A stretch of 64,000 nucleotides of DNA from an uncultured Gammaproteobacteria bacterium (GCA_964521295.1 CAZFRF010000001.1:140675-204674); one strand, 5' to 3'; positions 5,669 to 47,359 are shown, counted from the stretch's first letter. Notes: generated from the letters alone by a model not told the origin. Translations and numbers: made by a program.

Positions 5669-7598
5669 TTTGAGCTTCAAATTTCTCTTTAAGCATTTCT
5701 AGAATTTTAACTCTTATTGCTCCAACCTCTTCTTTGGTTAAGTTTTTTTCAAAATCTTGGAAAATAATATGGAAAGTCCTACTGTTTTCGAAAGAATCAA
5801 GAAGAGTTACATCAACTATCAATTTGTTAATATTTTTTATCTCATTAATTATCTCCTGAGTCTCACCAGAAGTTATAACAGAGATGTCTTGGGTCATTGG
5901 TGGAAACTTTGCAAAAGGAATAAAATTCTTTTTTAGATTTGCATGTTGTAAAATAATTTCTAAATTTAATTCAAAATCTACTAGATTTTCATCTAAGACT
6001 TCTATTTCTCCTAGATATTCTTTATCTAAATAAATAGATGCTCCCGTTCCTCCCTTTTGTGATTTTTTAAAGACTAAATTTTTAATTCCCAAATCTTCGC
6101 ATACGCTTTCAATAAGACCTTTAACACTAAAAAAATTTAAATTTCGTTCTTTAATTATTCCAGAAAGAGTTAAAATTTCCTTAGGTAAATCATTTTTTTG
6201 TTTAATATAAATATTCGCAACTTCAAAAATTTTAAGTTTTTCTTTAGAACTATTTTCCTTTTCAACCAAAAGTAAACTTGGGATTAAAGTATTGCGTAGA
6301 TATTCCATATCCGTAGTAAGAGGATTTTTTATTCTTACTGCATCCTCAATTGGGCCTTCGAATAAGTCTTCAGAAATAAAAGAATATGTATATACTTCTG
6401 TAAAGCCTAAATATTTAAAGGCTGTTTTTATTTTTTGTTCAAAGTAAAAATTATTTGCAAATAGTAATTTTTTCGAACTTAGAAATGTTGGAATAATGCT
6501 GTCAATTTTGTGATATCCATAAATTCTAGCAATTTCTTCAATAATATCTTCTTCAATTTTTACATCTGGTCTCTCTGTAGGCGTTTCTATTTCAAGAGAG
6601 TCTTTTAATTTTTTAACATTAAAACCTAAGTCAGTTAAAATGCTTGCGCATTTTTCTAATGAAAGTTCTGCGCCAATTAAAGAGTTAATTTTTTTAAGAG
6701 AAACTGTAATTTTATTTTTGATGGGTTTATTTGGGTAATAATCAAAAATTTCAGAAATAACTTTGCCTTTAGCAATTTGTTGGTATAAATCAATTCCTCT
6801 TTCTAACGCCTTAGTCATTAATTCTGGATCTAATCCCTTTTCATTAATAATCGCTGCTTCAGTTCTAATCCCTAAATTCATTGAGGTTTTTCGAATGTTT
6901 AATGGATTGTTGTTGTCCATAAAAAACAATATTCTTTTTGTATTATTATTTACAACACTATTTTGTGTTCCCATTATTCCCAGTAAATCTATTATTGTTC
7001 CATTGCCATCTTCTGCAACTATGTCTCCCCCATTTAAGGAGTATGTTTTTCCATCAAGAGTCGTTATTTTTTCTTCTTTTTTACTTTCTCTAATAATCAT
7101 TTCTTTTGGCAAGAGATCAAAATCGAATACATGAGTTGGATGACCTGTTTCTCGCATAACATAATTTGTAACATCGATTAAATTGTTTAAACTTCTTATG
7201 CCTGATAATTCTAATCGTTTACTAATTTCTGCAGGGCTATCTCCAGTTTCTACTTCCATAACCACTGCACAAATTCTATTAACAAGTTTTGGATCTGCTT
7301 TTATTTTTATTGGGAATTTTTCAGAGGATTTTGTAAAAGATGCATTTCTAGGGTTTTTAAAAATCGCTTTTTTACCATTTTCATTTAAAGAAAGGGCTGC
7401 TTCCTTAGCAATATTTTTAACTGACATTAAATCTGATCTATTGGTGGTTACTTCAATGTTGTAAACAATGTCATCATTTATTTTTTCAGTTCTTTCGACA
7501 GATACACTAACTAAAGAAAGATCTTTAGCAATTGTATTTGCATTTTCTTTTGTTTCTAAAAATTCTCTAAGCCACGAATCAACTATTTTTATATTCAT
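5658..7598 (-). CDS. pheT: phenylalanyl-tRNA synthetase beta subunit (short form, 646 aa)
   Basis: Lies immediately downstream of pheS on the same strand. It has B3/4 and B5-like regions and a C-terminal FDX-ACB-like end (LTKEEVGAIRVKILE). Confidence 0.75.
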   Translation of the reverse strand: MNIKIVDSWLREFLETKENANTIAKDLSLVSVSVERTEKINDDIVYNIEVTTNRSDLMSVKNIAKEAALSLNENGKKAIFKNPRNASFTKSSEKFPIKIKADPKLVNRICAVVMEVETGDSPAEISKRLELSGIRSLNNLIDVTNYVMRETGHPTHVFDFDLLPKEMIIRESKKEEKITTLDGKTYSLNGGDIVAEDGNGTIIDLLGIMGTQNSVVNNNTKRILFFMDNNNPLNIRKTSMNLGIRTEAAIINEKGLDPELMTKALERGIDLYQQIAKGKVISEIFDYYPNKPIKNKITVSLKKINSLIGAELSLEKCASILTDLGFNVKKLKDSLEIETPTERPDVKIEEDIIEEIARIYGYHKIDSIIPTFLSSKKLLFANNFYFEQKIKTAFKYLGFTEVYTYSFISEDLFEGPIEDAVRIKNPLTTDMEYLRNTLIPSLLLVEKENSSKEKLKIFEVANIYIKQKNDLPKEILTLSGIIKERNLNFFSVKGLIESVCEDLGIKNLVFKKSQKGGTGASIYLDKEYLGEIEVLDENLVDFELNLEIILQHANLKKNFIPFAKFPPMTQDISVITSGETQEIINEIKNINKLIVDVTLLDSFENSRTFHIIFQDFEKNLTKEEVGAIRVKILEMLKEKFEAQIKE

Positions 7599-7599
7599 A

Positions 7600-8646
7600 T
7601 TAAAATTGTTCTAAGAAATCCATTTTATTTGCATAGAGTGAGCGTAAGTCGTCGATTTCAATTCCTTCCTTCATCATTAATACCCTCTCTACTCCCCAAC
7701 CGAAAGCAAAGCCATTATACGTTTTTGGATCAACTCCGCAATTTTTTAATACATTAGGGTGAACCATTCCCGCTCCTCCCATTTCAAGCCAACCTTCTTT
7801 GCAAAGCTTGCAGCCTTTGCCTTTACAAACACCACAGCTAACATCAATTTCAAATGATGGTTCTGTAAATTCAAAATGATAAGGTCTAATTCTGGAAACA
7901 CGATCTTCTCCGAAGTAACTTTTAACAAAATAATCTAAAACACCTTTTAAGTTAGCAATGGACAAGTCTTTATCTATAGCCAGTCCTTCAAATTGATGAA
8001 ACATTGGGGTATGCGAAACATCAGATTGTCTTCTGTAGCATTTTGCTATGTTTAACATTTTTATGGGCGGCTTGGTTGTTGTCAGTTCTCTTATTTGACC
8101 GCTAGATGTATGGGGTGTTAAAAGCATAGGTCCGAATTTTGAGCTCTCTTTTTCATCAATAAAGAATGTTTCCCAATCGTCTCTAGCTGGATGATTTTTA
8201 GAAAAGTTTAATGCCTCAAAAGCATACCAATCATATTCTACTTCAGGATACCTAACTCTGATAAAACCAATTTTTTCAAAGATTGATTCTATCTCTGTAA
8301 TCGCTTGAGTAACTAAATGCAAGTGTCCAATATTTGGTTTAACTCCTGGATTTGTTACGTCAATTTTTTCAATTAAACTTGTCTTTCTTTGATGGTTTAA
8401 ACTTTGTTTCTTGTCTTCAATAGCGTCTTCAATAGTTTGTTTTACATCGTTTGCAAGCACACCAATAGCAGGTCTTTTTTCAACCGGTACGTTTTTAATT
8501 TCTTTTAAGGCAAGAGTTAGCTTGCCACTTTTACCTAAAAATTGAAGTTTTGTTTCTTCTAAATTATCTAAATCTTCAGCCTCTAAAATAAAAGCAAGAG
8601 CTGTATTTTTAATTCCAATAAGTTCTTCTTCCATATTTACAATCAT
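7600..8646 (-). CDS. pheS: phenylalanyl-tRNA synthetase alpha subunit
   Basis: Class II core motifs (FRxE-like FHQFEGL, GWLEMGGAGMVHPNVL, GFAFGWGVERV). Confidence 0.9.
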   Translation of the reverse strand: MIVNMEEELIGIKNTALAFILEAEDLDNLEETKLQFLGKSGKLTLALKEIKNVPVEKRPAIGVLANDVKQTIEDAIEDKKQSLNHQRKTSLIEKIDVTNPGVKPNIGHLHLVTQAITEIESIFEKIGFIRVRYPEVEYDWYAFEALNFSKNHPARDDWETFFIDEKESSKFGPMLLTPHTSSGQIRELTTTKPPIKMLNIAKCYRRQSDVSHTPMFHQFEGLAIDKDLSIANLKGVLDYFVKSYFGEDRVSRIRPYHFEFTEPSFEIDVSCGVCKGKGCKLCKEGWLEMGGAGMVHPNVLKNCGVDPKTYNGFAFGWGVERVLMMKEGIEIDDLRSLYANKMDFLEQF

Positions 8647-8676: not shown

Positions 8677-8895
8677 TTATCCTTTTGATTCTTGTCTTTG
8701 TTGTGCTTGGTGCATTACTTGTAGTGCATCAATTGCGCCTGGTGTGTTTGCTGCAAGATGAGCAAGTCTCATTACTGCTTGAGCTGCAGCTTCTGGATTA
8801 GCTCCAGCCTTAGCCATTGCTGCTTCATTATGCGCAACTCCAACAACGTGGGTTACATCAACTATTGGTTTTCTTTCAATTCCTTTTCTTGTCAT
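8677..8895 (-). CDS. small G+C-rich hypothetical protein (72 aa; MTRKGIERKPIVDVTHVVGVAHNEAAMAKAG...)
   Basis: The internal ATG at 8893-8895 is preceded by AAGGAGGTG with 7-nt spacing. The supplied ORF (to 8943) uses a TTG start and reads through the upstream terminator hairpin. G+C is higher than in its neighbours. Confidence 0.4.
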   Translation of the reverse strand: MTRKGIERKPIVDVTHVVGVAHNEAAMAKAGANPEAAAQAVMRLAHLAANTPGAIDALQVMHQAQQRQESKG

Positions 8896-8913: not shown

Positions 8914-8985
8914 AATAAAAAAACCTCCCGGTTGGGAGGTCAAATGCTTTTTGGCACTTATTTACCTCCCGTTAGGGATAGTAAA
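8914..8985 (-). promoter_or_regulatory. leader/terminator element A: small hairpin (tccc-GTTA-ggga on +) followed by the greA terminator hairpin (acctccc-ggtt-gggaggt + U-tract on the minus strand) and then the SD of the downstream gene
   Basis: 7-bp perfect GC-rich stem at 8923-8940; A-run at 8914-8922 on + (U-tract on minus). The 3' arm of the small hairpin (GGGAGG) is complementary to the terminator 5' arm (CCTCCC). Confidence 0.6.
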
Positions 8986-9021
8986 GTAAAAACCAAAAAA
9001 GTTTCTTAAATTCATATAGAC

Positions 9022-9050
9022 AATATAACAGATAGCCTGTTCTTATTCAA
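9022..9050 (-). promoter_or_regulatory. candidate sigma70-type promoter (TTGAAT-17-TATATT on the minus strand) driving the leader of the 8677..8895 gene
   Basis: Hexamers read on the minus strand; the -35 box overlaps the greA stop. Confidence 0.35.
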
Positions 9051-9495
9051 TAGAAACTATTAAATATTCAACAATTCCTGTTGGTGTTTTAATTTGTGCT
9101 TTTTCTCCAATTTTTTTTCCAAGTAATGCATAGCCAAACGGAGATTTGTTAGAAATTTTCCCAAGTGACGGATTTGCTTCAAACTCGCCTACTATTAAAT
9201 ATTCTTTTTCAAGCTTTTCATTTTTAATTTTAACTTTATGTCCAATTTGAATAATTTCTTTTCCCTCAGGGGTAAAGACCTTAGCAGATTTTAATAAATA
9301 TTTTAGATTGCGCATTTCTCTATCGATATCAGAAAGCTCAAATTTAGCGGCTTTATACAAACCGTTTTCAGATAAATCTCCCATTTCTCTGGCTCTTTTT
9401 AATGTGGCGACAGCTTCAGGTCTTTTGACAACTAAAGCTTGAAGTTTATCTTCAATTTCTTTGATTCCTTGTTTTGTAAAGGGAATTATTCTCAT
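9043..9495 (-). CDS. greA: transcription elongation factor GreA
   Basis: 150 aa; N-terminal coiled coil and C-terminal FKBP-like domain (GKISNKSPFGYALLGKKIGE). Confidence 0.9.
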   Translation of the reverse strand: MRIIPFTKQGIKEIEDKLQALVVKRPEAVATLKRAREMGDLSENGLYKAAKFELSDIDREMRNLKYLLKSAKVFTPEGKEIIQIGHKVKIKNEKLEKEYLIVGEFEANPSLGKISNKSPFGYALLGKKIGEKAQIKTPTGIVEYLIVSIE

Positions 9496-9498
9496 TTA

Positions 9499-10266
9499 TT
9501 AAAAACCACTTGCGGCTGTTGCTCTTCCTTCAAGTTCTGCAATTCCAGTAAGTAAGGAAATTTGTTGAACAGAGTTAACAACATTATGTGAGACAGCGAA
9601 AAATTCTTGACCCGGTTTAATAAAGGGCGCATCAATACTTGGACTACCAAGTAAGCCAATATTTAGGTGTAAAGCTTCTTCAGTGTCAACCTGAATATCT
9701 CTTGGTTGCAGTCCGAACGGAGCCATAGTTGTATAGGCTCTTTGCATTCTAGATTGGATGCCTTCGTTAAGTTCTGCACCAGCGTTTTGAGCAATAAAAG
9801 TAGCAAATGCAGGAGTTCCATCCATTGAGATTGCCCAATTGTCGCCTGGTTTTTGACCAAGGTTTAAATGAAGACGTGTTAATTGAGGAATATCTGTTTG
9901 CGGATCTGCATCTAAGAACGTAGAAAAATCAGTTAGAAGTAATCTTAGAGTTGCAACTCCATTAGTAATATTATCCCAATCTACTCCAAGATGAGTTGGT
10001 TTGGGTAGATCAAATTTATATGTGATCCAATCAGGATGAGCTCCTTCATGAGTTTCTAAAACTCCGCCATAACCCCAGCCGTGTTCTGCGCTTGGTTGTA
10101 CAAATTGTCCAGGAACACTAGAGAATCCTCTTCTTATTTGGACAGTGTCTTTATCAAATGTATTTCTATCTGGAGCAATTGATTTGGGAATATGAATTTG
10201 CAGAGCTTCACCAGTTGTAGCTAATCTATAGACTGCCTTCGGGTTTTCTTGTAGATTTCTAGCCAT
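9499..10266 (-). CDS. hypothetical protein (255 aa), G+C-rich, inserted between rplT and greA
   Basis: Long ORF with clearly higher G+C than the flanking ribosomal genes. TATAAT lies 7 nt before the ATG (leaderless-type) and there is no recognisable SD. No motif recognised. Confidence 0.45.
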   Translation of the reverse strand: MARNLQENPKAVYRLATTGEALQIHIPKSIAPDRNTFDKDTVQIRRGFSSVPGQFVQPSAEHGWGYGGVLETHEGAHPDWITYKFDLPKPTHLGVDWDNITNGVATLRLLLTDFSTFLDADPQTDIPQLTRLHLNLGQKPGDNWAISMDGTPAFATFIAQNAGAELNEGIQSRMQRAYTTMAPFGLQPRDIQVDTEEALHLNIGLLGSPSIDAPFIKPGQEFFAVSHNVVNSVQQISLLTGIAELEGRATAASGF

Positions 10267-10831: not shown

Positions 10832-11372
10832 TTTGTTTTTTCCTTTCTGGTGAGATTAAAACTATTAATTTTCTGCCCTCTAGTCTTCTCTCTCTGTCTA
10901 CCTTCGATATATCCGAAAGCAAATCTAAAGCTTTATCCAAAGTTCTGTGTCCAAACTCAGGATGAGTAATTTGCCTTCCGCTAAAAGAAACGACTAATCT
11001 GACTTTATCTCCGTTTTGCAAAAACTCTCTTGCTCTACCTACCATTACTTGAAGATCATTGTCTCCCATAAATGGTCCTAGGCGAACTTCTTTGGTTTCA
11101 GTAGTTTTTGCATTTCTTTTCTCTTCTCTTTTTTTCTTTTCCTCTTGATACAAAAACTTCTTGAAATCAATTAATTTTGCTACCGGTGGCTTAGCCATTG
11201 GAGCTATCTCTACTAGATCAAGCTCTTGTTCTCTTGCCAAATTTAAAGCTTCAAATTTGGAGAGTACTCCGATTTGCTTTCCTTCTGAGTCCAAAACCCG
11301 AAGTTCAGTTGCAAAAATTCGTTCGTTAGTGCGATAAAATTTTCTATCGTCTTTTTTAAACTTTTTTATCAA
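10788..11372 (-). CDS. infC: translation initiation factor IF-3
   Basis: N- and C-domains of IF3 (RVLDSEGKQIGVLSKFEALNLAREQELDLVEIAPMAKPPV...), in the conserved thrS-infC-rpmI-rplT order. Confidence 0.85.
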   Translation of the reverse strand: MIKKFKKDDRKFYRTNERIFATELRVLDSEGKQIGVLSKFEALNLAREQELDLVEIAPMAKPPVAKLIDFKKFLYQEEKKKREEKRNAKTTETKEVRLGPFMGDNDLQVMVGRAREFLQNGDKVRLVVSFSGRQITHPEFGHRTLDKALDLLSDISKVDRERRLEGRKLIVLISPERKKQNEKDENQEISSQEV

Positions 11373-12576
11373 TTTCGTCTTTTACCTTTGTTAAGAAATC
11401 TGAAATTTTCAGTACTCCTAAGTCTTTTCCATCTCTTAGCCTTAAAGAGACACTGTCATTTTCGACTTCCTTGCCTCCTATTATACCTAAAAATGGAATT
11501 TTTTGCAAAGTAGCGTTTTTAATCTTTTCTCTTAATGGGTCGCTAGAGCTATCTAAATATACTCTTACTCCCTGTTGGGTAAGATCTTGGCTAAGTTTTT
11601 TAGCAAATTCTAGTTGTGCGTCGGTAATTGGAAGTAAGGCTACTTGAGTTGGAGAGAGCCACAATGGGAAGTTTCCTTGATAGTGTTCAGTAAGAATTCC
11701 AATATATCTTTCAAAGCTACCTAGGATTGCTCTATGGATCATGACAGGCCTACCAAAGCTACCATCTTTTTGGACATATTTTAAGTCAAATGCTTCAGGC
11801 ATATGGAAATCTAGTTGAACTGTTGCAAGTTGCCATTCACGACCTAAGGAATCTTTAATATGAACATCAATTTTGGGTCCGTAAAATGCTCCATCTCCTT
11901 CTTTAAGGGAATATTTTAAGTTTTTCTTTTTTAAAGCTTCTTCTAAGTCTTTTTCAGCTTTTGTCCAGTTGTCCTCTGTGCCTGCGAAGAGCTCGGGTCT
12001 AGTGGCGAGTCTAAAATCAAATTCAAAACCGAATTTAGTATAGAATTCAATCATCATATCTAAAATATTGGAAACTTCTGAAAAAATATCATCTTCTGAA
12101 GCAAAGATATGGGCGTCATCCATGGTAATTTGTCTTACTCTTAAAAGTCCGTTTACTTCCCCACTCTTTTCTCTTCTGTGAAGCCTGCCGATTTCGGAAA
12201 GTCTTAAAGGAAGTTCTCTATATGATCTTGGTCTAAATCTATAGGCAATTGTTGCTTCAGGACAGTTCATTGGTTTTAGAGTATATAGCTCTCCTTTGGT
12301 ATCGTCTTCTGGATTATCCGATAGGTGCAGGTTGTACATGTTGTGTTCACCAAATTTAGTCCAGTGGCCTGATTCTTTAAACAGTTGGGATTTGATCATA
12401 ATAGGAGTTGAGATTTCTTGATAACCCGCTTTATCTAGTAAAAGTCTAATGTATTTTTCTAGCTCTTTAAAAATGATCATGCCTTTTGGAAGCCAGAAAG
12501 GAGCACCTGGTGCATATTCATGTGAGAAAAATAGTTCTAGTTCTTGGCCTAATTGTTTGTGATCTTTTAAATCCAT
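11356..12576 (-). CDS. thrS: threonyl-tRNA synthetase, short form (catalytic + anticodon-binding domains only)
   Basis: Class II motifs (FRxE: RLHRREKSGE; motif 3 region GSFERYIGIL). It has a C-terminal anticodon-binding domain but only 406 aa, so the TGS and editing N-terminal domains are absent. Confidence 0.8.
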   Translation of the reverse strand: MDLKDHKQLGQELELFFSHEYAPGAPFWLPKGMIIFKELEKYIRLLLDKAGYQEISTPIMIKSQLFKESGHWTKFGEHNMYNLHLSDNPEDDTKGELYTLKPMNCPEATIAYRFRPRSYRELPLRLSEIGRLHRREKSGEVNGLLRVRQITMDDAHIFASEDDIFSEVSNILDMMIEFYTKFGFEFDFRLATRPELFAGTEDNWTKAEKDLEEALKKKNLKYSLKEGDGAFYGPKIDVHIKDSLGREWQLATVQLDFHMPEAFDLKYVQKDGSFGRPVMIHRAILGSFERYIGILTEHYQGNFPLWLSPTQVALLPITDAQLEFAKKLSQDLTQQGVRVYLDSSSDPLREKIKNATLQKIPFLGIIGGKEVENDSVSLRLRDGKDLGVLKISDFLTKVKDEIDKKV

Positions 12577-13284: not shown

Positions 13285-13854
13285 TTAAAGACCAAGATAA
13301 GGTGCAATTTGTTGCATTGAGGTTAAGGCAATTTGAATAAATTCATTTAAGGGGATATTTAACTTTTCTTCACACATTTTTATATTTTCTCTTTTTGCTC
13401 CTTTAGCAAAACTTTTTTCTTTAAACCTATTTAAAACAAAATTTAAATCAATGCTGGAGAGTTTTTTATCAGGACTTATTAATGCGCAAGCGACAATAAG
13501 GCCCGTTAGTTCATCAGAACAACAGATGCTCCAGTCAAGAAGTGATTGAGGTTCAACCTTGGTGTATTTATAATTGTGAGCCATGATTGCGTAAATGAGT
13601 GATTCATCAATTTTTCCACCTAATATGTCTTTGGCAAGAAGCCCATGTTTTTCTGGATGATCTTTGGATTTTTCATAGTCAATGTCGTGTAAAAGACCAA
13701 CAAGTCCCCATTCCTCTAATGCTTGGGCGTTGGGATTTTCATTTAAACGAAGATATAGCGCGCGCATTACTGCCTCAGCTGCGAACATATGTTTTATGAG
13801 ATTGGGGCTTTTAACATTATCTGTTAAAAGTTGATATGCTTCTTCCCTTGTCAT
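13285..13854 (-). CDS. HD-domain phosphohydrolase, YqeK-like (putative Ap4A/dinucleoside polyphosphate hydrolase)
   Basis: 189 aa. It has an H...HD metal-binding signature (LLHDIDYEK, IMAHNY) and size and architecture like Gram-positive YqeK. Confidence 0.55.
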   Translation of the reverse strand: MTREEAYQLLTDNVKSPNLIKHMFAAEAVMRALYLRLNENPNAQALEEWGLVGLLHDIDYEKSKDHPEKHGLLAKDILGGKIDESLIYAIMAHNYKYTKVEPQSLLDWSICCSDELTGLIVACALISPDKKLSSIDLNFVLNRFKEKSFAKGAKRENIKMCEEKLNIPLNEFIQIALTSMQQIAPYLGL

Positions 13855-13874
13855 TAATCTATTGTAGCAAATTG

Positions 13875-13949
13875 TGGGCCCTAGAAGAGTCGAACTTCTG
13901 ACCTTTACAATGTCAATGTAACGCTCTAACCAACTGAGCTAAGAGCCCG
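13875..13949 (-). tRNA. tRNA-Val (GAC)
   Basis: Cloverleaf on the minus strand: acceptor gggctct/agggccc, anticodon loop TTGACAT, T-loop TTCGACT. Confidence 0.8.
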
Positions 13950-14018
13950 TTTCTTTGCTAATTCTAACAAACTAAGTCTTTAAAGGCAATTTACGTTTTC
14001 TTACAAAATATTATAGGC

Positions 14019-14582
14019 TTGATATTAGCTTCAGTTTGTGCTAAAATGTTGCCAATGATTAGATCTCCCGAAGGTTCACGTTGGGGACTTGTTGCACCTG
14101 AGACTCATGTAGATGCAGGCTTATCTGGCGTGGAAAATCATGAAAATTGTGTATTCTGTCGTATGATTGCGGGAAAACAAAAATCTCATCTATTTTTAAA
14201 TGAAAATGATGTTACAGGTTTAATTTCCTTAGAAGGTCATCCTCTATTTGTTCCAAATTATCATATTGAAAAATCTGATCTAGAAAAGGGGTCAGGTATT
14301 GTTGAGGTTGGTAGAGCATTTGAAGCAGCAGTTAGATTCGTACCAATAATTTTAGAAGCATATCATGCATCCTCTATTAATATTGTCGCTAATTTAGGTC
14401 GTGATGCTGGACAAGAGATTCCACATGTTCATGTTCATGCTGTACCTAGGTTTCCAGGTGACAATGGAATGAAAGTGGTTATTAGAGGAACACCTCCAAA
14501 ATCTTTACACGGTGCGGTAGCGGGTGCGATGAGTAATATATATAACGAATCAAAGAAACCAGCAAATTTTGAAGCCCTATAA
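14019..14582 (+). CDS. HIT-family nucleotide hydrolase (histidine triad)
   Basis: CVFCRMIAG N-terminal motif and the histidine triad HVHVHAVPR. The exact start is uncertain (N-terminal extension before CxFC). Confidence 0.75.
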   Translation: MILASVCAKMLPMIRSPEGSRWGLVAPETHVDAGLSGVENHENCVFCRMIAGKQKSHLFLNENDVTGLISLEGHPLFVPNYHIEKSDLEKGSGIVEVGRAFEAAVRFVPIILEAYHASSINIVANLGRDAGQEIPHVHVHAVPRFPGDNGMKVVIRGTPPKSLHGAVAGAMSNIYNESKKPANFEAL

Positions 14583-15500
14583 TTATTGAGGCTTTATGGC
14601 TGCAACTGGTATTCCTAATCTTCTTTTTCTATGACCTTTTGCTTCTGAAACATGTTGAACGCTGTATGCTAAGGCTTCTCTTTCAATCTGCCTCCATGTA
14701 CCTTGCGGATCATATAAGGGTATTGCTCCAGATGCAATATAGTTTCTCGCGCCATAATATTGTCCATTAGTTAATTTAGATCTGTCTTGAACCATAACTC
14801 CTGCATTTCCTGGATTGTGTTCTTGAGAATCAAGCCTAGGAACACAGGCTAATATTTCATCTTTTAATCTTTCTCTTTCAGGTCTGATACGAGTTAGTAG
14901 TTCATCTCTTTGTTCGTCAGTAATTCTGCCAACAACAGCTAAATCAATATTGCTTGGATCTGGATGATCTGGTCTTTTAACTAATCCTTTAGCAACTGAG
15001 CCAAAAAGTAATACAGCAACGTCATGTTGTGGATCAATTTCTCTCCATTGTTCAACAATGTGTGCAGCCAAACTTCCAGCTTGTCTAAGTAGCACTTCTC
15101 TTCTTTGATAATCGACGTCTTCCATATATCTTCTACCTGCCTCTGGTTTTGGATATCTTTTAGCTAAAATCGCACAATTTTTCATTATTGCGAGTCTTGC
15201 CTTTTCTTCTACTGGCCACAGATTTGCTTTTTCCTCAGTAGTGAATCTTGTTCCTTCTTGTTTGTGTTGTCTTGCTAAAGCCATTACTCTTGCGGTATGT
15301 TCAGGGGCAACAACTTTTATGCCAAACCTAGGTAGAGTTATTAAGTAATCAGGTTTAGTTGGCGTTTGGGTAGCGATTTGTTCAGTTGGGATAACTGTCG
15401 GTAAGCTAGTTTTTTTAGCCACTGTTTGATTTCCCATGAATTGGGCAGCAATCATATCTGGTGTGAATCCTGGTCTTGGTTTTAATTCAGATGTAATCAT
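14583..15500 (-). CDS. nucleotidyltransferase-fold protein, paralog 1 (MNT/pol-beta-like GS...NIDL motif)
   Basis: LLFGSVAKGLVKRPDHPDPSNIDLAVVG fits hG[GS]x(9-13)[DE]h[DE]h, but with Asn in place of the first acidic residue. The likely ATG is at 15498-15500, since the ORF-track start is TTG. G+C-rich. Confidence 0.5.
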   Translation of the reverse strand: MITSELKPRPGFTPDMIAAQFMGNQTVAKKTSLPTVIPTEQIATQTPTKPDYLITLPRFGIKVVAPEHTARVMALARQHKQEGTRFTTEEKANLWPVEEKARLAIMKNCAILAKRYPKPEAGRRYMEDVDYQRREVLLRQAGSLAAHIVEQWREIDPQHDVAVLLFGSVAKGLVKRPDHPDPSNIDLAVVGRITDEQRDELLTRIRPERERLKDEILACVPRLDSQEHNPGNAGVMVQDRSKLTNGQYYGARNYIASGAIPLYDPQGTWRQIEREALAYSVQHVSEAKGHRKRRLGIPVAAIKPQ

Positions 15501-15510
15501 ATTTTTAAAC

Positions 15511-15575
15511 AAAAAAAACCGCCTAGTATATTAGGCGGGTAAATTTTTGCAACGAATCCCCGCCGTTAGGCGTTA
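15511..15575 (-). promoter_or_regulatory. leader/terminator element E: small hairpin cgcc-GTTA-ggcg plus terminator hairpin ccgccta-gtatat-taggcgg with an 8-nt U-tract (minus strand), 11 nt before the start codon
   Basis: Same three-part architecture as elements A-D but with a compensatory GC variant (GGCGGGG/CCCGCC). Confidence 0.55.
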
Positions 15576-15621
15576 ATAAGATCTGCAAAATTTCTACAAA
15601 CTAATTTCATGTTAAGAAAGT

Positions 15622-15650
15622 AATTGTAGTACTAATCTATTAATGTGTCA
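15622..15650 (-). promoter_or_regulatory. near-consensus promoter TTGACA-17-TACAAT (minus strand) upstream of element E
   Basis: RC of 15645-15650 is TTGACA and RC of 15622-15627 is TACAAT, with a 17-nt spacer. Confidence 0.45.
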
Positions 15651-15677
15651 AGTTTTGGGTTAATTTAGGAAGCTAAA

Positions 15678-16460
15678 TTAATTACGGCCTTTATGTGTGT
15701 GCGCTGCTCTTTTAGCCAGTAACCCTGCTTGATATTCAATGGCGCCTTTGTCTATTTCAGCCCAAATTCCCGCAGGATCATGTAGGGCATAAGCTCCTGA
15801 GGCAAGATAGACTCTAGCTTCGCCAAAATGATCTTTAGTTAAGACTTCAGGTTTTTGGACAAATACTCCTACATTTCCAGGTAGTGGATCTAATGTTTTG
15901 TCAACATTTGGACAAGTTGATCTGATTAATTCCCCCAAAGCTGTTCTTTCTTTGCGTATAGCATTTAAAAGTGCCGTGGTTGTTTCGGTTGTAAAGTTTC
16001 CAACAACAGCTAGATCAATGTTGCTTGGATCTGGGTGAAGTCTTGATTTAACAAGACCTGTTGCAACTGATCCAAACAATACAACCGCTATGTCTTTTTC
16101 AGGTTCAATATTCCTCCATTCTGAGGTGATATGATCAGACATTCTATCAGCCATATCTAAAAGTTCAATATGTCTTTCAGTGTCGATTTCATGCATAAAA
16201 CTTTCGCCGATTTGTCTTTCGGGATATCTACGGGCAGTGATTTTGCTACTTAACATTAATTGGATTCTTGCTTTTAATTCAGGCGTCCAAAGCAAAGGTC
16301 TTTGGCTTGGATCTAAAGGTGTATGAACTCTTTGTCCCTCAACAAGCGTAGTTCTTTGTCTAATTGACGATAAAACCTCACGTACAGGAGCAGGAGCAAC
16401 CACTCTTATTCCTGCATGTGGGTGCGTGATTCTTCTATCTAATTCAAATGTATTAATCAT
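15678..16460 (-). CDS. nucleotidyltransferase-fold protein, paralog 2
   Basis: VVLFGSVATGLVKSRLHPDPSNIDLAVVG is the same motif with the same Asn substitution. It is alignable with 14583..15500 over most of its length. G+C-rich. Confidence 0.5.
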   Translation of the reverse strand: MINTFELDRRITHPHAGIRVVAPAPVREVLSSIRQRTTLVEGQRVHTPLDPSQRPLLWTPELKARIQLMLSSKITARRYPERQIGESFMHEIDTERHIELLDMADRMSDHITSEWRNIEPEKDIAVVLFGSVATGLVKSRLHPDPSNIDLAVVGNFTTETTTALLNAIRKERTALGELIRSTCPNVDKTLDPLPGNVGVFVQKPEVLTKDHFGEARVYLASGAYALHDPAGIWAEIDKGAIEYQAGLLAKRAAHTHKGRN

Positions 16461-16545
16461 AAAATAAAAAAACCTCCCAATTTGGGAGGTCTATTTGTTA
16501 TTTGCTAATTTTTAGTTACGCAAATAAACCTCCTTTAAGGAAGTT
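16461..16545 (-). promoter_or_regulatory. leader/terminator element B (terminator hairpin cctccca-att-tgggagg + U-tract; upstream small element cctcctttaaggaag)
   Basis: 7-bp GC stem at 16473-16489; the A/T run at 16461-16472 abuts the start codon at 16460. Confidence 0.55.
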
Positions 16546-16594
16546 ATTCTTGCTCTTGAATTCAAATTTATAGTTCATAGTAGGTATTATAGTA

Positions 16595-17242
16595 TTATCC
16601 AACCTGTTGTGCAACTGCGCGCTCAGAAGACATGCTGTAGCTTGTTCCATGAGACTGGGCCAGGCTCCAAAAGTCTTTTTTGCCTTTTTTACCCGCTAAT
16701 GCTCCTAGCCAGCTTGCGCTAGATTCAATTCTAACTCTAGCGTTTTGAATAGTGGATAACATCCATTCAAAGAAGTTAAGGTGATATTTACCAGGTTTAA
16801 CTGCTTGAGTCATGGTTTCTCTAGTTACATCCTTAAAGGCTGATTCAAGTTCTTTGGAGGCTTGTCTCATTTTAACTAACTCTACTCTAATTTCTTCTAA
16901 TCTTTGGGATACTTCTCTGTTTTCCGCCTGAACTCTTCTAGCTTCTGCGTGGATAATTTCGCCAGCGTAATCTATTCCAGGCTCAACTTCAGCGCGTCTC
17001 TCTTTAGCTGCTTCTTTTCCAAAAGATACTTCTTGGCCTTCTTGAAGGTCTCCAGAGGCATGATGAGCAGCTTGTTGGGTCTCGGCTGCAAACTTATCCA
17101 AGCCTAAGATCTCACGCATAAGATCTTTTGAACCTTCTTTAATAAGGTCATTAGTAAAAGAGTGCGCAACATCACCAGCAAGTTCAAAACCTGCTTCAAG
17201 CTTATCTACTTCACGTAATATTTTAAATGGGTTTTTTGGCAT
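16595..17242 (-). CDS. coiled-coil hypothetical protein (215 aa), G+C-rich
   Basis: Charged, heptad-like sequence (ENREVSQRLEEIRVELVKMRQASKELESAFKD). No motif recognised. Confidence 0.4.
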   Translation of the reverse strand: MPKNPFKILREVDKLEAGFELAGDVAHSFTNDLIKEGSKDLMREILGLDKFAAETQQAAHHASGDLQEGQEVSFGKEAAKERRAEVEPGIDYAGEIIHAEARRVQAENREVSQRLEEIRVELVKMRQASKELESAFKDVTRETMTQAVKPGKYHLNFFEWMLSTIQNARVRIESSASWLGALAGKKGKKDFWSLAQSHGTSYSMSSERAVAQQVG

Positions 17243-17262: not shown

Positions 17263-18096
17263 TCACAGGGACCTTAAGAAATCAAGCGTTTTTTGCTGCC
17301 TGATTATAGAAGCAAGGAGATATTTATTGGCTTCCAAATTTTGTCTTTCTGCGTCAGATTTAGCTGTTGCAATAGCTTCATTTACTTCTTTTTCTTCGGC
17401 AATAATATTTTCTTCTTTAGCAATTTGTTGCAAGATGAATTCAAGTTTTACATCTGTTTCAGCTTTTTTTGCAAATTCTGCCTTAAGGTTGTCAACTGTT
17501 CTACCAGTTGATGACAAGTATTGTTCTAAAGTTAAACCTAATTTTCTAATTTCATCTAAAGTTTGAGATAACAGTTTTTCAACTTCGCTTTCAATAATGA
17601 CTGCTGGAATAACTACATTTCCTTTTGTCATTAAGATCTTAGCAATTTCATCAAAGCTAACTGGTTGTTGGGTTTGTCCAGGAACGACTACTTTAGCTTT
17701 AGCATTTACAGCTTTGACTTCTTCTTTATATCCAGTAATTGTAATAACTGGCATTTCGCAAGTTAAGGCATGAAATTCCCAATCTGCATTGTCATCAATC
17801 TTAGAAATATTAATTCTAGGAGATACAATTGGTGTAATTTTATTAGCAGCAATAGCTTGGCTATATGCCTGAGGCAAAAGTCTTCTTAAAACGTCTTCTT
17901 TAATGTGGTCCTTAGAAAGACTTTGCTCAACCATATTTTTAGGAGCCATGCCTTTTCTAAAACCAGGAATTTCCGCATCTTTGACATGTTCAGCAATAAC
18001 TTGATCTTTAGTTTGTAAAACTAAAGTCCAAGGAACTGAGATTGTGAAATCTATTGTTCCGTCTTCTAATTTTTTAAATGTTGATTTAATATCCAT
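17263..18096 (-). CDS. tig: trigger factor, short form lacking the PPIase domain
   Basis: Ribosome-binding signature IPGFRKGMAPKNMV. The start is taken at MDIKST (18094-18096) because the ORF-track N-terminal extension overlaps tRNA-Leu. Confidence 0.75.
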   Translation of the reverse strand: MDIKSTFKKLEDGTIDFTISVPWTLVLQTKDQVIAEHVKDAEIPGFRKGMAPKNMVEQSLSKDHIKEDVLRRLLPQAYSQAIAANKITPIVSPRINISKIDDNADWEFHALTCEMPVITITGYKEEVKAVNAKAKVVVPGQTQQPVSFDEIAKILMTKGNVVIPAVIIESEVEKLLSQTLDEIRKLGLTLEQYLSSTGRTVDNLKAEFAKKAETDVKLEFILQQIAKEENIIAEEKEVNEAIATAKSDAERQNLEANKYLLASIIRQQKTLDFLRSL

Positions 18097-18105
18097 ATTT
18101 ATTTG

Positions 18106-18189
18106 TGCGGACGAGAGGAGTTGAACCCCCACGCCTTTAAAGGGCACAAGGTCCTAAACCTTGCGTGTCTGCCATTTCACCACGTCCGC
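18106..18189 (-). tRNA. tRNA-Leu (UAG)
   Basis: Minus-strand cloverleaf with a long variable arm, anticodon loop TTTAGGA, acceptor gcggacg/cgtccgc. Confidence 0.8.
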
Positions 18190-18240: not shown

Positions 18241-18798
18241 TTATAGGGAAAGCGAAAGTGTGTTTTTAGTATCGTTTAAAGCAAATTCGTTAATTCTATT
18301 CATATAGAAGGTAACGTGATCAGCCCAGACTGGAGATGAAGCATAAATACGGCCTATCTCATAGACATCTTTTGCTCCCCAAGTGTTCATGTACTTTGAT
18401 CTAATACCCTCAGATATAGTATGAATACCTTCACTCCATGAAGCAAAGTTAATAACATTGTCTCCATATACTCCCCAACCCCATCCATTATATGAATTAT
18501 AAGGAATAGCTTTACCAAAGGTAGATTCAGTACCTGCAATAGCTGCAACTAATTTCCAATCTAAGTTATATTTATCAGCTTCAGATACGAAATCCTGAGC
18601 AAATGGTGCTAAAGGAGAATCATACTTTTCTAAGAAAGCTTTAAGTGTTTTTACACGAAAGTCTCCTCCCGTATTGTAATCAACGGCAGTTGAGATAATT
18701 TTTGCAGAGGATGCTGAGGCTTTTTGCTGCGAATATGCTTTTTGAGGAATAATGATTATAATTGCAGCAATTAATACTGGCAATATCTTATTCTTCAT
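18241..18798 (-). CDS. secreted GH73-like peptidoglycan hydrolase (glucosaminidase domain)
   Basis: Signal peptide; AIAGTESTFGK is the GH73 catalytic-Glu region, then YNGWGWGVYGD. Confidence 0.5.
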   Translation of the reverse strand: MKNKILPVLIAAIIIIIPQKAYSQQKASASSAKIISTAVDYNTGGDFRVKTLKAFLEKYDSPLAPFAQDFVSEADKYNLDWKLVAAIAGTESTFGKAIPYNSYNGWGWGVYGDNVINFASWSEGIHTISEGIRSKYMNTWGAKDVYEIGRIYASSPVWADHVTFYMNRINEFALNDTKNTLSLSL

Positions 18799-18912: not shown

Positions 18913-19554
18913 CTATAGGTCTGTGTCTTTATAATCGAGCCTATCCATATAGACTGCGATCCATTTTGCCCAGCTGCCATTAACACTTACTGGGTTATAT
19001 TTACTCATTAATTCTTCTGGGGTTTCTAGGCCTTTAGCTATATACTGAGTTGCCAATGTTTTGGTTACAACATCGATGGCTTGATTAAAGCTATCAAAGC
19101 TGGTAACTTTTTTCCCATAAATTCCAAATCCCCAACAATTATGAGTATCTTTATATTTTTTAGGGAGATTTTTACATAAAGTTGATTCTTGCATAGCTAT
19201 GGCAGGGATTAATCTGTAATCAATATCATATTTATCAGCAGCTTTAACAATTTCTCCGGCATATGGTAAAAGCGGTGATTTATGTAAAGAAAGAAAATCT
19301 TGTATTGAGCTTACTCTTGCATCTACTATTTCTGGCTTAAGAATAGTCTCTTGTCCTCCGCTAGGAAGTGCAGCGTAGGCAACTTTTGGTGTTTGATTAA
19401 GGGAAAATAGCACATCACTTCCCTGACGATAGATAAAAGAAAGAAAAAGAAGGCTAAGAATAAGGGTTGTGGGGGTTAAAAAGAAAAAGAGACTGAGCAG
19501 TAATATCTTTTTCATAATACCAGTTATATTTACAGATTTAGAGCTTAAAGTCAA
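18913..19554 (-). CDS. secreted GH73-like peptidoglycan hydrolase, paralog
   Basis: AIAMQESTLCK...NCWGFGIYGK is alignable with 18241..18798. It has an N-terminal TM/signal segment. Confidence 0.5.
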   Translation of the reverse strand: MTLSSKSVNITGIMKKILLLSLFFFLTPTTLILSLLFLSFIYRQGSDVLFSLNQTPKVAYAALPSGGQETILKPEIVDARVSSIQDFLSLHKSPLLPYAGEIVKAADKYDIDYRLIPAIAMQESTLCKNLPKKYKDTHNCWGFGIYGKKVTSFDSFNQAIDVVTKTLATQYIAKGLETPEELMSKYNPVSVNGSWAKWIAVYMDRLDYKDTDL

Positions 19555-20223: not shown

Positions 20224-20279
20224 CATTTATCTCTTGTTAGTTTCAAATTAATTACATATACTCTGTATTAATCTTTTCG

Positions 20280-20379
20280 GGGATTTGCGAAAGTCAAAAT
20301 CGGTAGTAAACTCTACGAGCGAAAGCACGAGTCTGTGAAACTCAGACAGCGACCGTAAAGTCGGGATGAAAGAAAGATT
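20280..20379 (+). promoter_or_regulatory. candidate structured 5' leader (possible riboswitch-like element) upstream of the EamA transporter
   Basis: About 100 nt, G+C-richer, with two GNRA-loop hairpins (gcGAAAgc twice), hairpin gtctg-tgaaact-cagac and hairpin cgac-cgtaaa-gtcg immediately before the SD/ATG. Class unidentified. Confidence 0.2.
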
Positions 20380-21288
20380 ATGAAAAAAATACTTGGTCTT
20401 GGACCATTATTTATTGTTATTGCTGCGAGTCTTTGGGCTTTAGATGGCGTATTAAGAATTTCTCTCTATTCTCTTCCCCCAGCTACTATTGTATTTTATG
20501 AACATCTTTTTGGTTTTGTAATTTTGAGTTTTATTTTCTTTAAATGGATTAAGGATTTAAGAAAAATGACTCGAAAAGAATGGATTGGTATAGTAATAGT
20601 CTCACTTTTCTCTGGAGCTTTAGGTACAATTTTTTATACTCTAGCTTTGCAAAAAGTTAATTTCATTTCTTATAGCGTAGTAGTTCTGTTGCAACAGCAA
20701 CTACAACCTATTTGGGCAATACTTGCAGCGTCACTTCTATTAAAAGAAAAAATATCTAAAAAGTTTCTTTTTTGGACTGTAATAGCTTTAATTTCTGTCT
20801 ATTTTGTTACTTTTAAAGATTTAACTTTTAATTTGCAAACTGGGCAGGGTGTCGCTATTGCCGCTTTGCTTGCTTTAGGTGCTGGATTCATGTGGGGTAG
20901 CTCAACAGCTGTTAGTAAGTTAGTTTTAAAAAAAGTTAGTTTTTTAACTGCAACAGCAGAGAGATTCTTCTTAGCGCCTATTTTTGCTTTGGGATTTGTT
21001 ATTTTGCAAAACCAAACAGCCTCTCTTTTTGCTTTGAATGCAAATCAGATAAATACTCTAGTAATTATAGCTTTGTCTACAGGAATGGTTTCTTTAGTTA
21101 TCTATTATTATGGTTTGAAAAAAACCAGCGCAAGGGTTAGTGCGATCTGCGAAATGGCTTTTCCAGTTACAGCAGTTTTAATAGATTACTTTTATTTTCA
21201 TAAAACGCTCTCCCCTACCCAGATTATAGGAATAATCTTTTTAATCTTTGCTGTCTTTAAGGTTTCGCAGCAAAATAAGAAAGCATAG
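20380..21288 (+). CDS. EamA/DMT-family (drug/metabolite transporter) permease
   Basis: 302 aa with about 10 predicted TM helices in two EamA-like repeats. Confidence 0.7.
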   Translation: MKKILGLGPLFIVIAASLWALDGVLRISLYSLPPATIVFYEHLFGFVILSFIFFKWIKDLRKMTRKEWIGIVIVSLFSGALGTIFYTLALQKVNFISYSVVVLLQQQLQPIWAILAASLLLKEKISKKFLFWTVIALISVYFVTFKDLTFNLQTGQGVAIAALLALGAGFMWGSSTAVSKLVLKKVSFLTATAERFFLAPIFALGFVILQNQTASLFALNANQINTLVIIALSTGMVSLVIYYYGLKKTSARVSAICEMAFPVTAVLIDYFYFHKTLSPTQIIGIIFLIFAVFKVSQQNKKA

Positions 21289-47080: not shown

Positions 47081-47168
47081 AAAAAAACCTCCCCTTTAGG
47101 GAGGTTTATCTCTTTTTAGCTTAAAATATATTAAGCCACAGAAATACCTCCCTTCTTAAGGAAGTGGT
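47081..47168 (-). promoter_or_regulatory. leader/terminator element C, ending 7 nt before the ATP-grasp-like gene start
   Basis: Terminator hairpin cctccc-cttta-gggagg with U-tract, AT palindrome gcttaatatattttaagc, and small hairpin cttc-ttaag-gaag/GGGAGG. The SD equals the 3' arm of the terminator. Confidence 0.55.
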
Positions 47169-47217
47169 ATGTAAACCAATATTGACAATTTGTTAAAATC
47201 ATTTGTTTCATAAACAT
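47131..47217 (-). CDS. candidate leader peptide ORF (28 aa, MFMKQMILTNCQYWFTYHFLKKGGISVA)
   Basis: It starts with the same ATGTTTATGAAA as the ATP-grasp-like gene (a duplicated 5' segment) and is preceded by element D. Its C-terminal codons overlap the small hairpin of element C, and its stop is the first codon of the AT palindrome. Confidence 0.3.
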   Translation of the reverse strand: MFMKQMILTNCQYWFTYHFLKKGGISVA

Positions 47218-47285
47218 AAAAAAACCTCCCATTTGGGAGGTATCAATTTGCCATTTGGCAACACAATTACCTCCCGTTAAGGAAA
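47218..47285 (-). promoter_or_regulatory. leader/terminator element D, upstream of the 28-aa ORF
   Basis: Terminator cctccc-attt-gggagg with U-tract, palindrome ttgccaaatggcaa, and small element cctcccgttaaggaaag. Its spacer is similar to element A. Confidence 0.5.
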
Positions 47286-47330
47286 GTATAGTGCCAAAAT
47301 TTGCATAAATTTATTTTCATCTTAAAGTCC

Positions 47331-47359
47331 ATTCTAGCTATTTTTTATAGGATTGTCAA
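47331..47359 (-). promoter_or_regulatory. near-consensus promoter TTGACA-17-TAGAAT (minus strand) driving element D and the leader ORF
   Basis: RC of 47354-47359 is TTGACA and RC of 47331-47336 is TAGAAT. Confidence 0.4.

Follow-up and report, generated by a model that had tools for sequence, protein, structure and literature searches.

Two nucleotidyltransferase-fold proteins with an eroded catalytic site, each behind an attenuator-like leader, in a putative Patescibacteria genome

Introduction

Ribosome-mediated attenuation of transcription is classical in Escherichia coli trp and pheST. In characterized nucleotidyltransferases (NTases) of the polymerase beta (Pol-beta) type, the loss of any one catalytic carboxylate abolishes activity. 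HIT enzymes hydrolyze nucleotide-phosphoramidate and acyl adducts, and the connection of Hint with lysyl-AMP has reportedly been discussed in print. Here, we describe a locus in which these three themes come together. It occupies positions 13,285 to 17,242 of a 64,000-nucleotide stretch of DNA (the window; GCA_964521295.1, CAZFRF010000001.1:140675-204674) deposited under an uncultured gammaproteobacterium, and it contains two paralogous NTase-like genes, NT1 and NT2, each behind its own leader, together with a gene for a HIT hydrolase. The source is most likely a member of the Patescibacteria, or candidate phyla radiation (CPR), judged by the names of the closest protein homologs. To our knowledge, the minimal genomes of Patescibacteria are full of unannotated genes, and their gene regulation and response to amino acid shortage are almost unstudied.

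We favor, with a probability of roughly 0.5, the reading that NT1 and NT2 are NTase-fold proteins induced by amino acid starvation, probably binding nucleotides rather than polymerizing them, and paired with the HIT hydrolase. The evidence comes from the active site, from the anatomy of the leaders and from gene order in related genomes.

Results

Two paralogs with an eroded active site

The two genes and their leaders are arranged as follows.

14583..15500, minus strand: NTase-1 (NT1), 305 amino acids (aa) from the ATG at 15500, minimal-NTase fold with an N-x-D site
15501..15651, minus strand: NT1 leader, with promoter, leader open reading frame (ORF), hairpin and terminator
15678..16460, minus strand: NTase-2 (NT2), 260 aa, paralog with an N-D-G site
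16461..16613, minus strand: NT2 leader, with -10 box, leader ORF, hairpin and terminator

NT1 and NT2 are 43% identical over 247 aa (E 5e-61), and both carry the motif FGSVAxGLVK...PDPSNIDLAVVG, as an earlier note made from this sequence without database searches had recognized. That note gave lengths of 309 and 260 aa, of which the second is right and the first is corrected to 305 aa: the longer NT1 frame begins with a TTG at 15512, inside the terminator U-run, and the form that begins with the ATG at 15500 is identical to a database protein (P0009). Both proteins have the alpha-beta-alpha-beta-alpha-beta core of Pol-beta-type NTases, and their Pfam NTP_transf_2 (PF01909) scores, 21.4 bits for NT2 and 19.7 bits for NT1, straddle the cut-off of 21. 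Compared with minimal NTases (MNTs), the family has an N-terminal extension of ~90 residues and a long C-terminal helix. Fold-level likeness extends, at lower scores, to CD-NTases, terminal uridylyltransferases, Rel, MiD49 and NF45/NF90.

A word-indexed search of 5.8 billion proteins returned 8 relatives, and an exhaustive HMMER search of 1.84 billion representatives returned 71 cluster representatives, 61 of them with E<1e-10. One member is named Levybacteria or Patescibacteria, like the homologs of the neighboring genes, and the family is tiny and restricted to Patescibacteria. A sequence search of the PDB with the family profile gave chance AMA1 matches and no true match, and NCBIfam gave nothing better than E 0.12 (MntA, E 0.16, 11.9 bits against a cut-off of 60). 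Profile searches thus place the proteins in no well-characterized housekeeping NTase family. We tried and rejected the identities of MNT antitoxin, CD-NTase, ANT/Lnu enzyme and GlnE, whose profiles and features were unmatched. In particular, the type VII HEPN-MNT toxin-antitoxin systems combine a HEPN protein with a small MNT of ~100-140 aa; NT1 and NT2 have 305 and 260 aa, and Pfam finds no HEPN domain near them, their neighbors being DUF5660 and HIT. Of the loci of relatives used below (numbered with the prefix L), a genome scan gave 4 and a metagenome scan at least 2 true relatives; the unrelated proteins from the latter that join a winged helix-turn-helix to an MNT (L017-L024) were left out.

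The state of the active site was counted in 69 full-length members. G130, S131, S146, D149 and W233 are invariant in 69/69, and the hG[GS] nucleotide-binding loop is therefore present throughout (G130/S131). In the column of the first carboxylate (147), 54 members have Asn, 14 have Asp and one has Ser. Both window proteins read N147-I-D149, so the [DE]h[DE]h pair is absent from them. At the third carboxylate (Gly198), 57 of the 69 have Gly, and Asp is confined to the 7 most distant members, whose site, GS...PSDIDIDL...RIDTYVW, is canonical. Taken together, the three columns read D,D,D in 7 members and D,D,(G/C/S) in another 7; 53 members, NT1 and NT2 among them, read N,D,G, and one member each reads S,D,A and N,D,C. 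D144 and D228 are retained in 62/69, and the main clade conserves, besides the GS and the second Asp, an Asp-Pro-Ser ahead of the site and, toward the C terminus, one Asp and one Trp. The earlier note had seen Asn at the first catalytic Asp of both paralogs, which the PSDIDIDL of the distant members in that column confirms, and altered or absent catalysis was a fair suggestion, as the substitution is kept in both paralogs and in most of the family. It understated the case, in that two of the three carboxylates are gone.

When the neighbor-joining tree is rooted on the D,D,D group, P0063 (D,D,S) branches at the base, and several members with Asp at 147 are nested among those with Asn. On this evidence, the third carboxylate disappeared in a single event, after which position 147 alternates between Asn and Asp, and the classical site, as read from the tree, decayed stepwise from D-D-D through D-D-x to N-D-G. 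In the same tree, NT2 groups with the single NTase of L003, and NT1 groups with the NTases of L001 and others, in the subclade whose members have HIT beside them. A recent tandem duplication was rejected, given that the two fall in separate subclades, each with single-copy orthologs elsewhere; by their placement, NT1 and NT2 are old paralogs that predate the split of the lineages and have been kept since. Members that are 24-40% identical still have ~20 invariant or almost invariant positions in common.

We infer that the N-D-G members have lost catalysis. Judged by their residues, they would no longer perform two-metal nucleotidyl transfer and would still bind a nucleotide-type ligand, such as ATP, aminoacyl-AMP or a dinucleoside polyphosphate (ApnA). 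A rather unlikely alternative is that they are active adenylyl- or nucleotidyltransferases with a remodeled one-metal site (N147/D149 plus D144 or D228), which would nucleotidylate a protein, a tRNA or a small molecule during amino acid starvation in an AMPylation/de-AMPylation cycle, with the convergent HIT hydrolase stripping off the adduct. The pocket is evidently still under selection, because D144/D228 are so widely kept and position 147 admits only N, D or, once, S, and GS, S146 and D149 never vary. The pairing of NTase with HIT, which is tight in 10 loci, would suit such a cycle, as would the known action of HIT enzymes on adducts and the arrangement in L029, where HIT is absent and the NTase is flanked by genes for a NUDIX hydrolase and a His_Phos_1 phosphatase. 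However, a site that has lost two of its three carboxylates, with Gly in most third columns, is set against a fold in which losing one suffices to end activity; no target can be identified, and HIT does not adjoin the NT2-type, P0013-type or D-D-x members.

Leaders with attenuator anatomy

A terminator-like hairpin with a U-run stands just ahead of the ATG of each NTase gene, at the end of the leader element that the earlier note had reported. At NT1, a promoter (TTGACA-17-TACAAT, 15651-15623) is followed by a near-leaderless ORF (15610-15566) that encodes MKLVCRNFADLINA and has its stop codon in the loop of the hairpin CGCC-TAAC-GGCG. Segment 1, GGCGGGG (15564-15558), can pair with CCCGCC, and the terminator (15538-15519) is followed by U8; the orthologous leader is present in L006. 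At NT2, a -10 box (TATAAT, 16591-16586) precedes a leaderless ORF (16578-16516) encoding MNYKFEFKSKNNFLKGGLFA and the hairpin CTTCC-TTAAA-GGAGG, in which segment 1, GGAGGT, pairs with ACCTCC. The NT2 terminator (16492-16470) is followed by a U-run, and its 3' arm, GGGAGG, doubles as a Shine-Dalgarno sequence 12 nucleotides (nt) before the ATG. The L003 leader encodes MNLKLVKNSKKNSVKGGLFA, which has the same length as the NT2 peptide and shares ...KGGLFA with it, with synonymous changes in the common LF residues.

A hairpin and U-run abutting a start codon occur at both NTase genes and in three other places in the window. Four of these hairpins are CCTCCC-loop-GGGAGG-U7 on the minus strand, and the NT1 leader uses CCGCC/GGCGG instead. 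The pattern CCTCC-loop-GGAGG has 5 matches in the window against 0.05 expected, one of which (25071) is unrelated. Ahead of this terminator, the window leaders have a sigma-70-like promoter, an ORF of 13-28 codons that begins 6-12 nt past the -10 box and is accordingly leaderless or almost so, and a small hairpin with the stop codon of the ORF in its loop or 3' flank; the ORFs ahead of NT1 and NT2 have 14-20 codons. We rejected the idea that the hairpins are plain terminators of the upstream genes, because each hairpin is separated from the upstream stop codon by a promoter and a conserved short ORF and directly adjoins the start codon that follows.

Leaders built in this way precede NTase genes in 13 loci, according to a scan of the related loci. 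In RNAfold predictions, the 5' hairpin and the terminator both form, and folds of the nascent transcripts of NT1, NT2 and the proximal leader of a 320-aa ORF described below also show an alternative, in which the 3' arm of the 5' hairpin pairs with the 5' arm of the terminator. Among 14 leaders, pairing of the terminator arm with its own leader scores -11.7 kcal/mol, compared with -9.0 across loci (permutation p about 5e-5), and the antiterminator invariably uses the 3' arm of hairpin 1 for this pairing. Stems differ (CCTCC, CCGCC, CCCGC, CTCCC, CCTCTC) with complementarity kept, and on inspection of the sequences, no more than a few bases separate that arm from the stop codon in 14/14. The NTase leaders have the anatomy of attenuators, and their pairing segments covary.

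We infer ribosome-mediated attenuation from this anatomy, by analogy with trp and pheST. Termination would be the default state: a ribosome that reaches the leader stop codon would mask the 3' arm of hairpin 1, and transcription would end at the terminator. A ribosome stalled earlier, at hungry codons, would free segment 1, allowing the antiterminator to form and the NTase gene to be transcribed; at NT2, the antiterminator would also free the Shine-Dalgarno sequence in the 3' arm of the terminator. The NTase-like protein would then accumulate when charged tRNA runs short.

What the leaders might sense

The same leader type stands before other genes, in the window and in related contigs, with the following peptides.

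Related contig, before the threonyl-tRNA synthetase (ThrRS) gene: MKHVFVTTTTTASF
Related contig, before the ThrRS gene: MTQLTHNITTQNRPL
Window, before p72-pheS-pheT: MNLRNFFGFYFTIPNGR
L030, before the NTase gene and the lysyl-tRNA synthetase (LysRS) gene: MKKTKKHSCEKG
Related contig, before an AroA-like gene: MTLTMALSYFKFTSL, which contains Y and F
Window, before a 320-aa ORF and an M20 peptidase gene: aromatic-rich peptides (KFWHYTF; QYWFTYHF)

Codon runs read TTTTT before thrS and KKTKK before NTase-lysS in relatives, and FFGFYF before pheST in the window. The leaders of relatives (L028 ~8950-9071, L012 ~2640-2760, L030 4758-5000, L010 ~10130-10250) encode TTTTT or T-rich peptides before thrS, KKTKK before NTase-lysS, where L030 has two tandem attenuators, and the peptide with Y and F before the AroA-like gene. 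The pheST leader of the window (8914-9016, minus strand) lies between greA and a 72-aa Ala/Gly-rich ORF (8677-8895, minus strand) that precedes pheS/pheT (5658-8646, minus strand). Its peptide, MNLRNFFGFYFTIPNGR, comes from a leaderless ORF and, much as in a pheST attenuator, has 4 Phe and 1 Tyr, and the leader's best Rfam match is Phe_leader, at 39.3 bits below the threshold of 55. Across the leaders, Rfam gave no family at threshold, the best sub-threshold matches being Phe_leader (29.7 and 39.3 bits) and Leu_leader (20.6 bits). Two tandem leaders at 47085-47345 (minus strand) encode the aromatic-rich peptides MKINLCKFWHYTFLNGR and MFMKQMILTNCQYWFTYHFLKKGGISVA and precede the 320-aa ORF, which has no Pfam match (46118-47080, minus strand), and the M20 peptidase gene (45028-46116, minus strand). 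The ORF downstream of the distal leader opens with the same four codons as the 320-aa gene (MFMK), suggesting that a leader was duplicated together with the start of the gene. Leader-peptide attenuation of aminoacyl-tRNA synthetase (aaRS) genes seems common in this lineage of Patescibacteria.

The NTase leaders fall into several types. NT1-type peptides are mostly rich in Leu, Ile and Val near the end (VVLLITP, LVLLITR, IVLLCR, DLINA), NT2-type peptides are rich in Lys and Asn, and the leader of the D,D,D member P0072 encodes GFAFYFNFA. The NTase genes probably belong to an amino acid starvation regulon, since the same leader type carries codon runs that match its aaRS cargo.

Leader stalling under a translation inhibitor, as at erm, cat and vmlR, would give these peptides another meaning, with the NTases modifying or binding an antibiotic in the manner of ANT/Lnu proteins. 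We regard this as very improbable. The catalytic carboxylates that all characterized ANT/Lnu enzymes use are missing, nothing in NCBIfam, resistance models included, matched better than E 0.12, and the family is core-syntenic rather than mobile. Moreover, the same leader type occurs before thrS, pheST, lysS and the aroA-like gene with matching codon runs, which argues for amino acid sensing.

The HIT hydrolase and the variable slot

The remaining genes of the locus flank the NTase pair.

13285..13854, minus strand: HD-superfamily phosphohydrolase, 189 aa, ORF with a sub-threshold Pfam HD match
13874..13948, minus strand: tRNA-Val, anticodon GAC (ARAGORN; Rfam tRNA 69.8 bits)
14019..14582, plus strand: HIT-family hydrolase with HVHVHAV (Pfam HIT)
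16595..17242, minus strand: DUF5660 protein, 215 aa (Pfam DUF5660)

The HIT hydrolase with its HVHVHAVPR motif, noticed earlier, matches Pfam HIT at E 7.9e-9 (36.5 bits against a cut-off of 21.5), and its closest solved relatives are the bacterial Hit/Hint-like structures 3l7x and 1y23 (E ~1e-10). Its start is likely the ATG at 14055, which would give 175 aa and a leaderless mRNA by its position 7 bases past a TAAAAT -10 box (box and ATG within 14042-14057, plus strand); the L006 ortholog also has 175 aa. HIT and NT1 are convergent with adjacent stop codons. The same tail-to-tail arrangement, with stops adjacent or overlapping, occurs in the window, L001, L006, L010, L011, L012, L014, L015, L016 and L027, and the NTases so paired reach down to 31% identity (L014). 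Because of this recurrence in ten loci, the HIT hydrolase is likely to be a partner or antagonist of the NTase, and we speculate that it may act on the ligand or adduct of the NTase and that read-through from the NTase gene, which would be antisense to HIT, may lower HIT expression.

The earlier note took the HD protein for a YqeK-like enzyme and counted it as part of a nucleotide module. That assignment is not borne out: TIGR00488 is unmatched at E<=1, Pfam HD reaches 19.4 bits against 22, and the PDB is unmatched even at E<=10. There are 4483 HD homologs, named "predicted hydrolase (HD superfamily)" (JGI) or "phosphohydrolase [Candidatus Levybacteria]," and one holds the same position in L026, whose slot has neither NTase nor HIT. 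A diadenosine tetraphosphate (Ap4A) hydrolase of YqeK type that belongs to the module is thus not supported; the HD protein is a member of a very widespread housekeeping family, a neighbor of the NTase/HIT unit and probably co-transcribed with the tRNA-Val. The tRNA-Val had been named correctly; ARAGORN and Rfam both find it beside HD, with anticodon GAC.

The 215-aa protein described earlier as a coiled coil exists and consists mostly of long predicted helices, and its identity is DUF5660 (PF18904; 103.5 bits against a cut-off of 24). The AlphaFold2 model is poor (predicted local distance difference test score 61), with helices at 92-145 and 152-183. Its 130 homologs include several named Candidatus Levybacteria or Patescibacteria, and a literature search found no paper mentioning DUF5660. 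The gene starts 20 nt past tig and always stands ahead of the leader-controlled slot whatever the cargo, including the NTase-less loci L025 and L026, so that its presence shows no particular link to the NTase. The slot after tig-DUF5660 is variable, behind a conserved attenuator, with cargo that is unrelated between genomes, for example:

L025, 5646-10645: 557-aa ORF, GCS2, MR_MLE and M20
L026, 5661-7611: ORFs of 117, 197 and 76 aa and YjbQ
L027, 5643-7106: 160-aa ORF and NTase
L028, 3557-5427: ORFs of 154 and 89 aa and NTase

An all-against-all comparison of slot cargo found no common homology except NT1/NT2 and one small-ORF pair.

It is decidedly doubtful, in our view, that the adjacency of these genes has no functional meaning, with lineage-specific or decaying NTase-like proteins sitting in a tolerant slot and HIT, HD and DUF5660 as independent housekeeping genes. 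Several observations fit such a picture: the entire 10-kb block is syntenic, which makes linkage inseparable from inherited order, L025 and L026 have DUF5660 and HD but no NTase, slot cargo is unrelated between genomes, and the 4483 HD homologs compare with 71 NTase clusters. However, decaying proteins would hardly keep so many near-invariant positions at such divergence, nor two paralogs since before the lineage split. Each gene, down to the distant D-D-D member, has a dedicated regulated leader, and HIT abuts the NTase in ten loci and is missing from the slot in the two loci that have no NTase (L025 and L026).

Origin of the locus and its G+C content

Proteins encoded around the locus are 58-70% identical to homologs named Candidatus Levybacteria or Patescibacteria, and the window most likely comes from a small, low-G+C Patescibacteria genome near Candidatus Levybacteria, as far as these similarities indicate. 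The label "uncultured Gammaproteobacteria" on the closest metagenome-assembled genomes (MAGs; L009-L012) is probably placeholder taxonomy, in view of gene content and homolog names.

The gene order in the window is two glucosaminidase-like genes, tig, DUF5660, the variable slot, the convergent HIT, tRNA-Val/HD, DUF5665, thrS and infC. The order glucosaminidase-like pair-tig-DUF5660-NTase-HIT (convergent)-HD-DUF5665-thrS-infC recurs, whole or in part, in nine independent contigs (L001, L003, L006, L010, L011, L012, L015, L016 and L027), two of which are named Patescibacteria genomes or large MAG contigs. Compared with the window, their ThrRS proteins are 44-73% identical and their NTases 31-86% identical. 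The co-localization of NTase, DUF5660 and HIT in related genomes, which the earlier note had proposed to check, is thereby established. The HD-HIT-NTase group is not a single operon, as HIT is convergent to NT1 and HD lies beyond the tRNA on the other side.

The earlier note saw the NTase and coiled-coil genes as visibly richer in G+C and named the region a G+C-rich island. Their G+C contents (NT1 0.383, NT2 0.398, DUF5660 0.415) correspond to z-scores of only 0.9-1.7 against the mean of 0.344 (standard deviation 0.042) for the 70 window genes, and their G+C at third codon positions (GC3), 0.20-0.29, equals that of the backbone. It is codon positions 1 and 2 that carry the excess, which reflects proteins richer in Gly, Ala, Arg and Pro. 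Native GC3 and synteny with distant relatives are the grounds on which we conclude that the NTase/HIT region belongs to a translation-gene neighborhood and was inherited vertically with it, and is not an acquired G+C-rich island. Three findings had been named in advance as speaking against the module: a match to a housekeeping NTase family, scattered genes in relatives and unremarkable G+C. Only the third was found.

A horizontally acquired nucleotide-signaling or anti-phage module, similar to CD-NTase/CBASS, Thoeris or MNT-HEPN systems and built from HD, HIT, the NTases and the coiled-coil protein, is accordingly exceedingly improbable. No SMODS, GlnE or Cas10 profile matches, and no effector gene or HEPN partner is present. 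PADLOC gave only a generic HIT match and sub-threshold NTase matches (E 0.01-0.04, PDC-M05A), none better than E 0.01, and PHROGs gave nothing for the NTases; the MntA score given above is equally remote. An SMODS/CD-NTase profile, an adjacent effector and an intact triad, the marks of CD-NTase/CBASS and other catalogued defense systems, are all lacking, and the triad that signal synthesis needs is degenerate. The genes are not one transcription unit, the arrangement is syntenic within the translation-gene backbone of distant relatives, and the regulation is of the amino acid attenuator type common to aaRS genes. A false lead is thus cleared, in that the locus is not a defense island.

Several neighboring features are recorded here in their own right. 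The trigger factor (17263-18147, minus strand) has just 294 aa; Pfam recognizes its N- and C-terminal domains but no peptidyl-prolyl isomerase domain. ThrRS (11356-12576, minus strand) has 406 aa and is limited to the core and the anticodon domain, whereas the enzymes of some relatives reach 463 or 578 aa by means of N-terminal domains. Upstream of tig lies a pair of secreted paralogs (18241-18798 and 18913-19554, both minus strand) with weak glucosaminidase/SLT-like matches, and this pair is kept in most related loci that reach that far. A flavin mononucleotide (FMN) riboswitch (20269-20381, plus strand; Rfam score 76.5 bits, gathering threshold 66.2) directly follows two tRNA-Leu genes and stands ahead of a 302-aa ORF.

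Discussion

The favored reading, that NT1 and NT2 are starvation-induced, nucleotide-binding proteins paired with HIT, joins an eroded but selected pocket to a regulated leader and a recurrent neighbor. A number of points weigh against it. No single amino acid is enriched in the NTase leader peptides, which are variously Leu/Ile/Val-rich, Lys/Asn-rich and, in one case each, Phe-rich and Lys-rich. The Leu-Leu-Ile codons partly overlap the RNA-pairing segment CUCCUUAU, and the constraint could be on RNA rather than on peptide. The promoters are consensus matches in AT-rich DNA, and a scan of the region found 25 promoter-like sites where 21.7 were expected. NTases without an adjoining HIT occur in L003, where the NTase is of NT2 type, in L028 and L029, where the sites read D,D,S and D,D,C, and in L030; in place of HIT, L029 has NUDIX and His_Phos_1 genes, and in L030, the NTase P0013 lies 8 nt upstream of the class I LysRS gene, behind a Lys-rich leader. 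The NTase-HIT adjacency could in part be inherited gene order, the whole block being syntenic. Finally, Asn can ligate Mg2+, and a selected site of this kind could support an unusual one-metal reaction.

A bolder version of the starvation reading, which we hold to be unlikely, is that the N-D-G NTases form a CPR-specific starvation factor: induced by attenuators at hungry codons, they would bind or process an adenylylated intermediate of aminoacylation, in partnership with HIT and with aaRS genes. The ligand may be aminoacyl-AMP, Ap4A or the 3' end of tRNA, and the paralog lineages, with leaders of Leu/Ile, Lys/Asn and Phe type, may be tuned to different amino acids. If true, ultra-small bacteria that are unable to make their own amino acids would have a further branch of control, so far undescribed, over the quality or supply of translation.

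Whatever the function, the family allows the erosion of a catalytic triad to be read directly, and it offers active-type (D-D-D) and degenerate members for side-by-side biochemistry. The leaders would extend classical leader-peptide attenuation, with leaderless ORFs, to Patescibacteria, where it would control aaRS genes and a variable cargo slot; among the papers listed by a literature query, none combined Patescibacteria with attenuation terms. The locus also provides a testable link between an orphan NTase family, a HIT hydrolase and the response to amino acid starvation.

Among described attenuators, those of E. coli (trpL, pheM-pheST, thr, leu and ilv) are the closest in design, with a promoter-proximal short ORF, four segments that pair as terminator or antiterminator, a stop codon so positioned that a terminating ribosome masks segment 1, and codon runs that match the cargo (thrS and lysS in relatives, pheST in the window). 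The leaders described here differ from them in that their ORFs are apparently leaderless and the 3' arm of the terminator often serves the cargo gene as Shine-Dalgarno sequence. For mycobacteria, leader ORFs of the leaderless kind have been reported in a preprint (bioRxiv 10.1101/834739). The present cargo, unlike that of those attenuators, includes an NTase-like gene in place of a biosynthetic or aaRS gene, and the host is a CPR bacterium.

HIT/Hint proteins have been tied to LysRS and Ap4A, and the likeness here consists of a bona fide HIT hydrolase and of P0013 beside a class I LysRS gene, whereas a link between HIT and the NTases is suggested by gene order. Compared with MNTs (NTP_transf_2, HI0073, Sulfolobus 2rff and the MntA antitoxins), the window NTases are longer (~260-305 aa), have a 5-residue insertion between the GS and the acidic strand, carry Asn for the first Asp and Gly for the third carboxylate, and have no HEPN partner. 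To ANT(9), ANT(4'), ANT(3'')(9) and LinB, the similarity is at the level of fold only, without conserved carboxylates or a sequence-profile match; in contrast to those enzymes, the family is chromosomal, core-syntenic and restricted to Patescibacteria, and its type of leader carries amino acid codon runs before aaRS genes. The degenerate NTase folds of MiD49/MiD51 and of the NF45/NF90 DZF domain are eukaryotic and unrelated in sequence, whereas here, the GS loop and one Asp are invariant and a fully canonical sister group survives within the family. We conclude that the window NTases descend from minimal Pol-beta-type NTases, having lost two of the defining catalytic features, and that the locus represents a degenerate subfamily in an unusual regulatory and genomic setting rather than a categorically new system.

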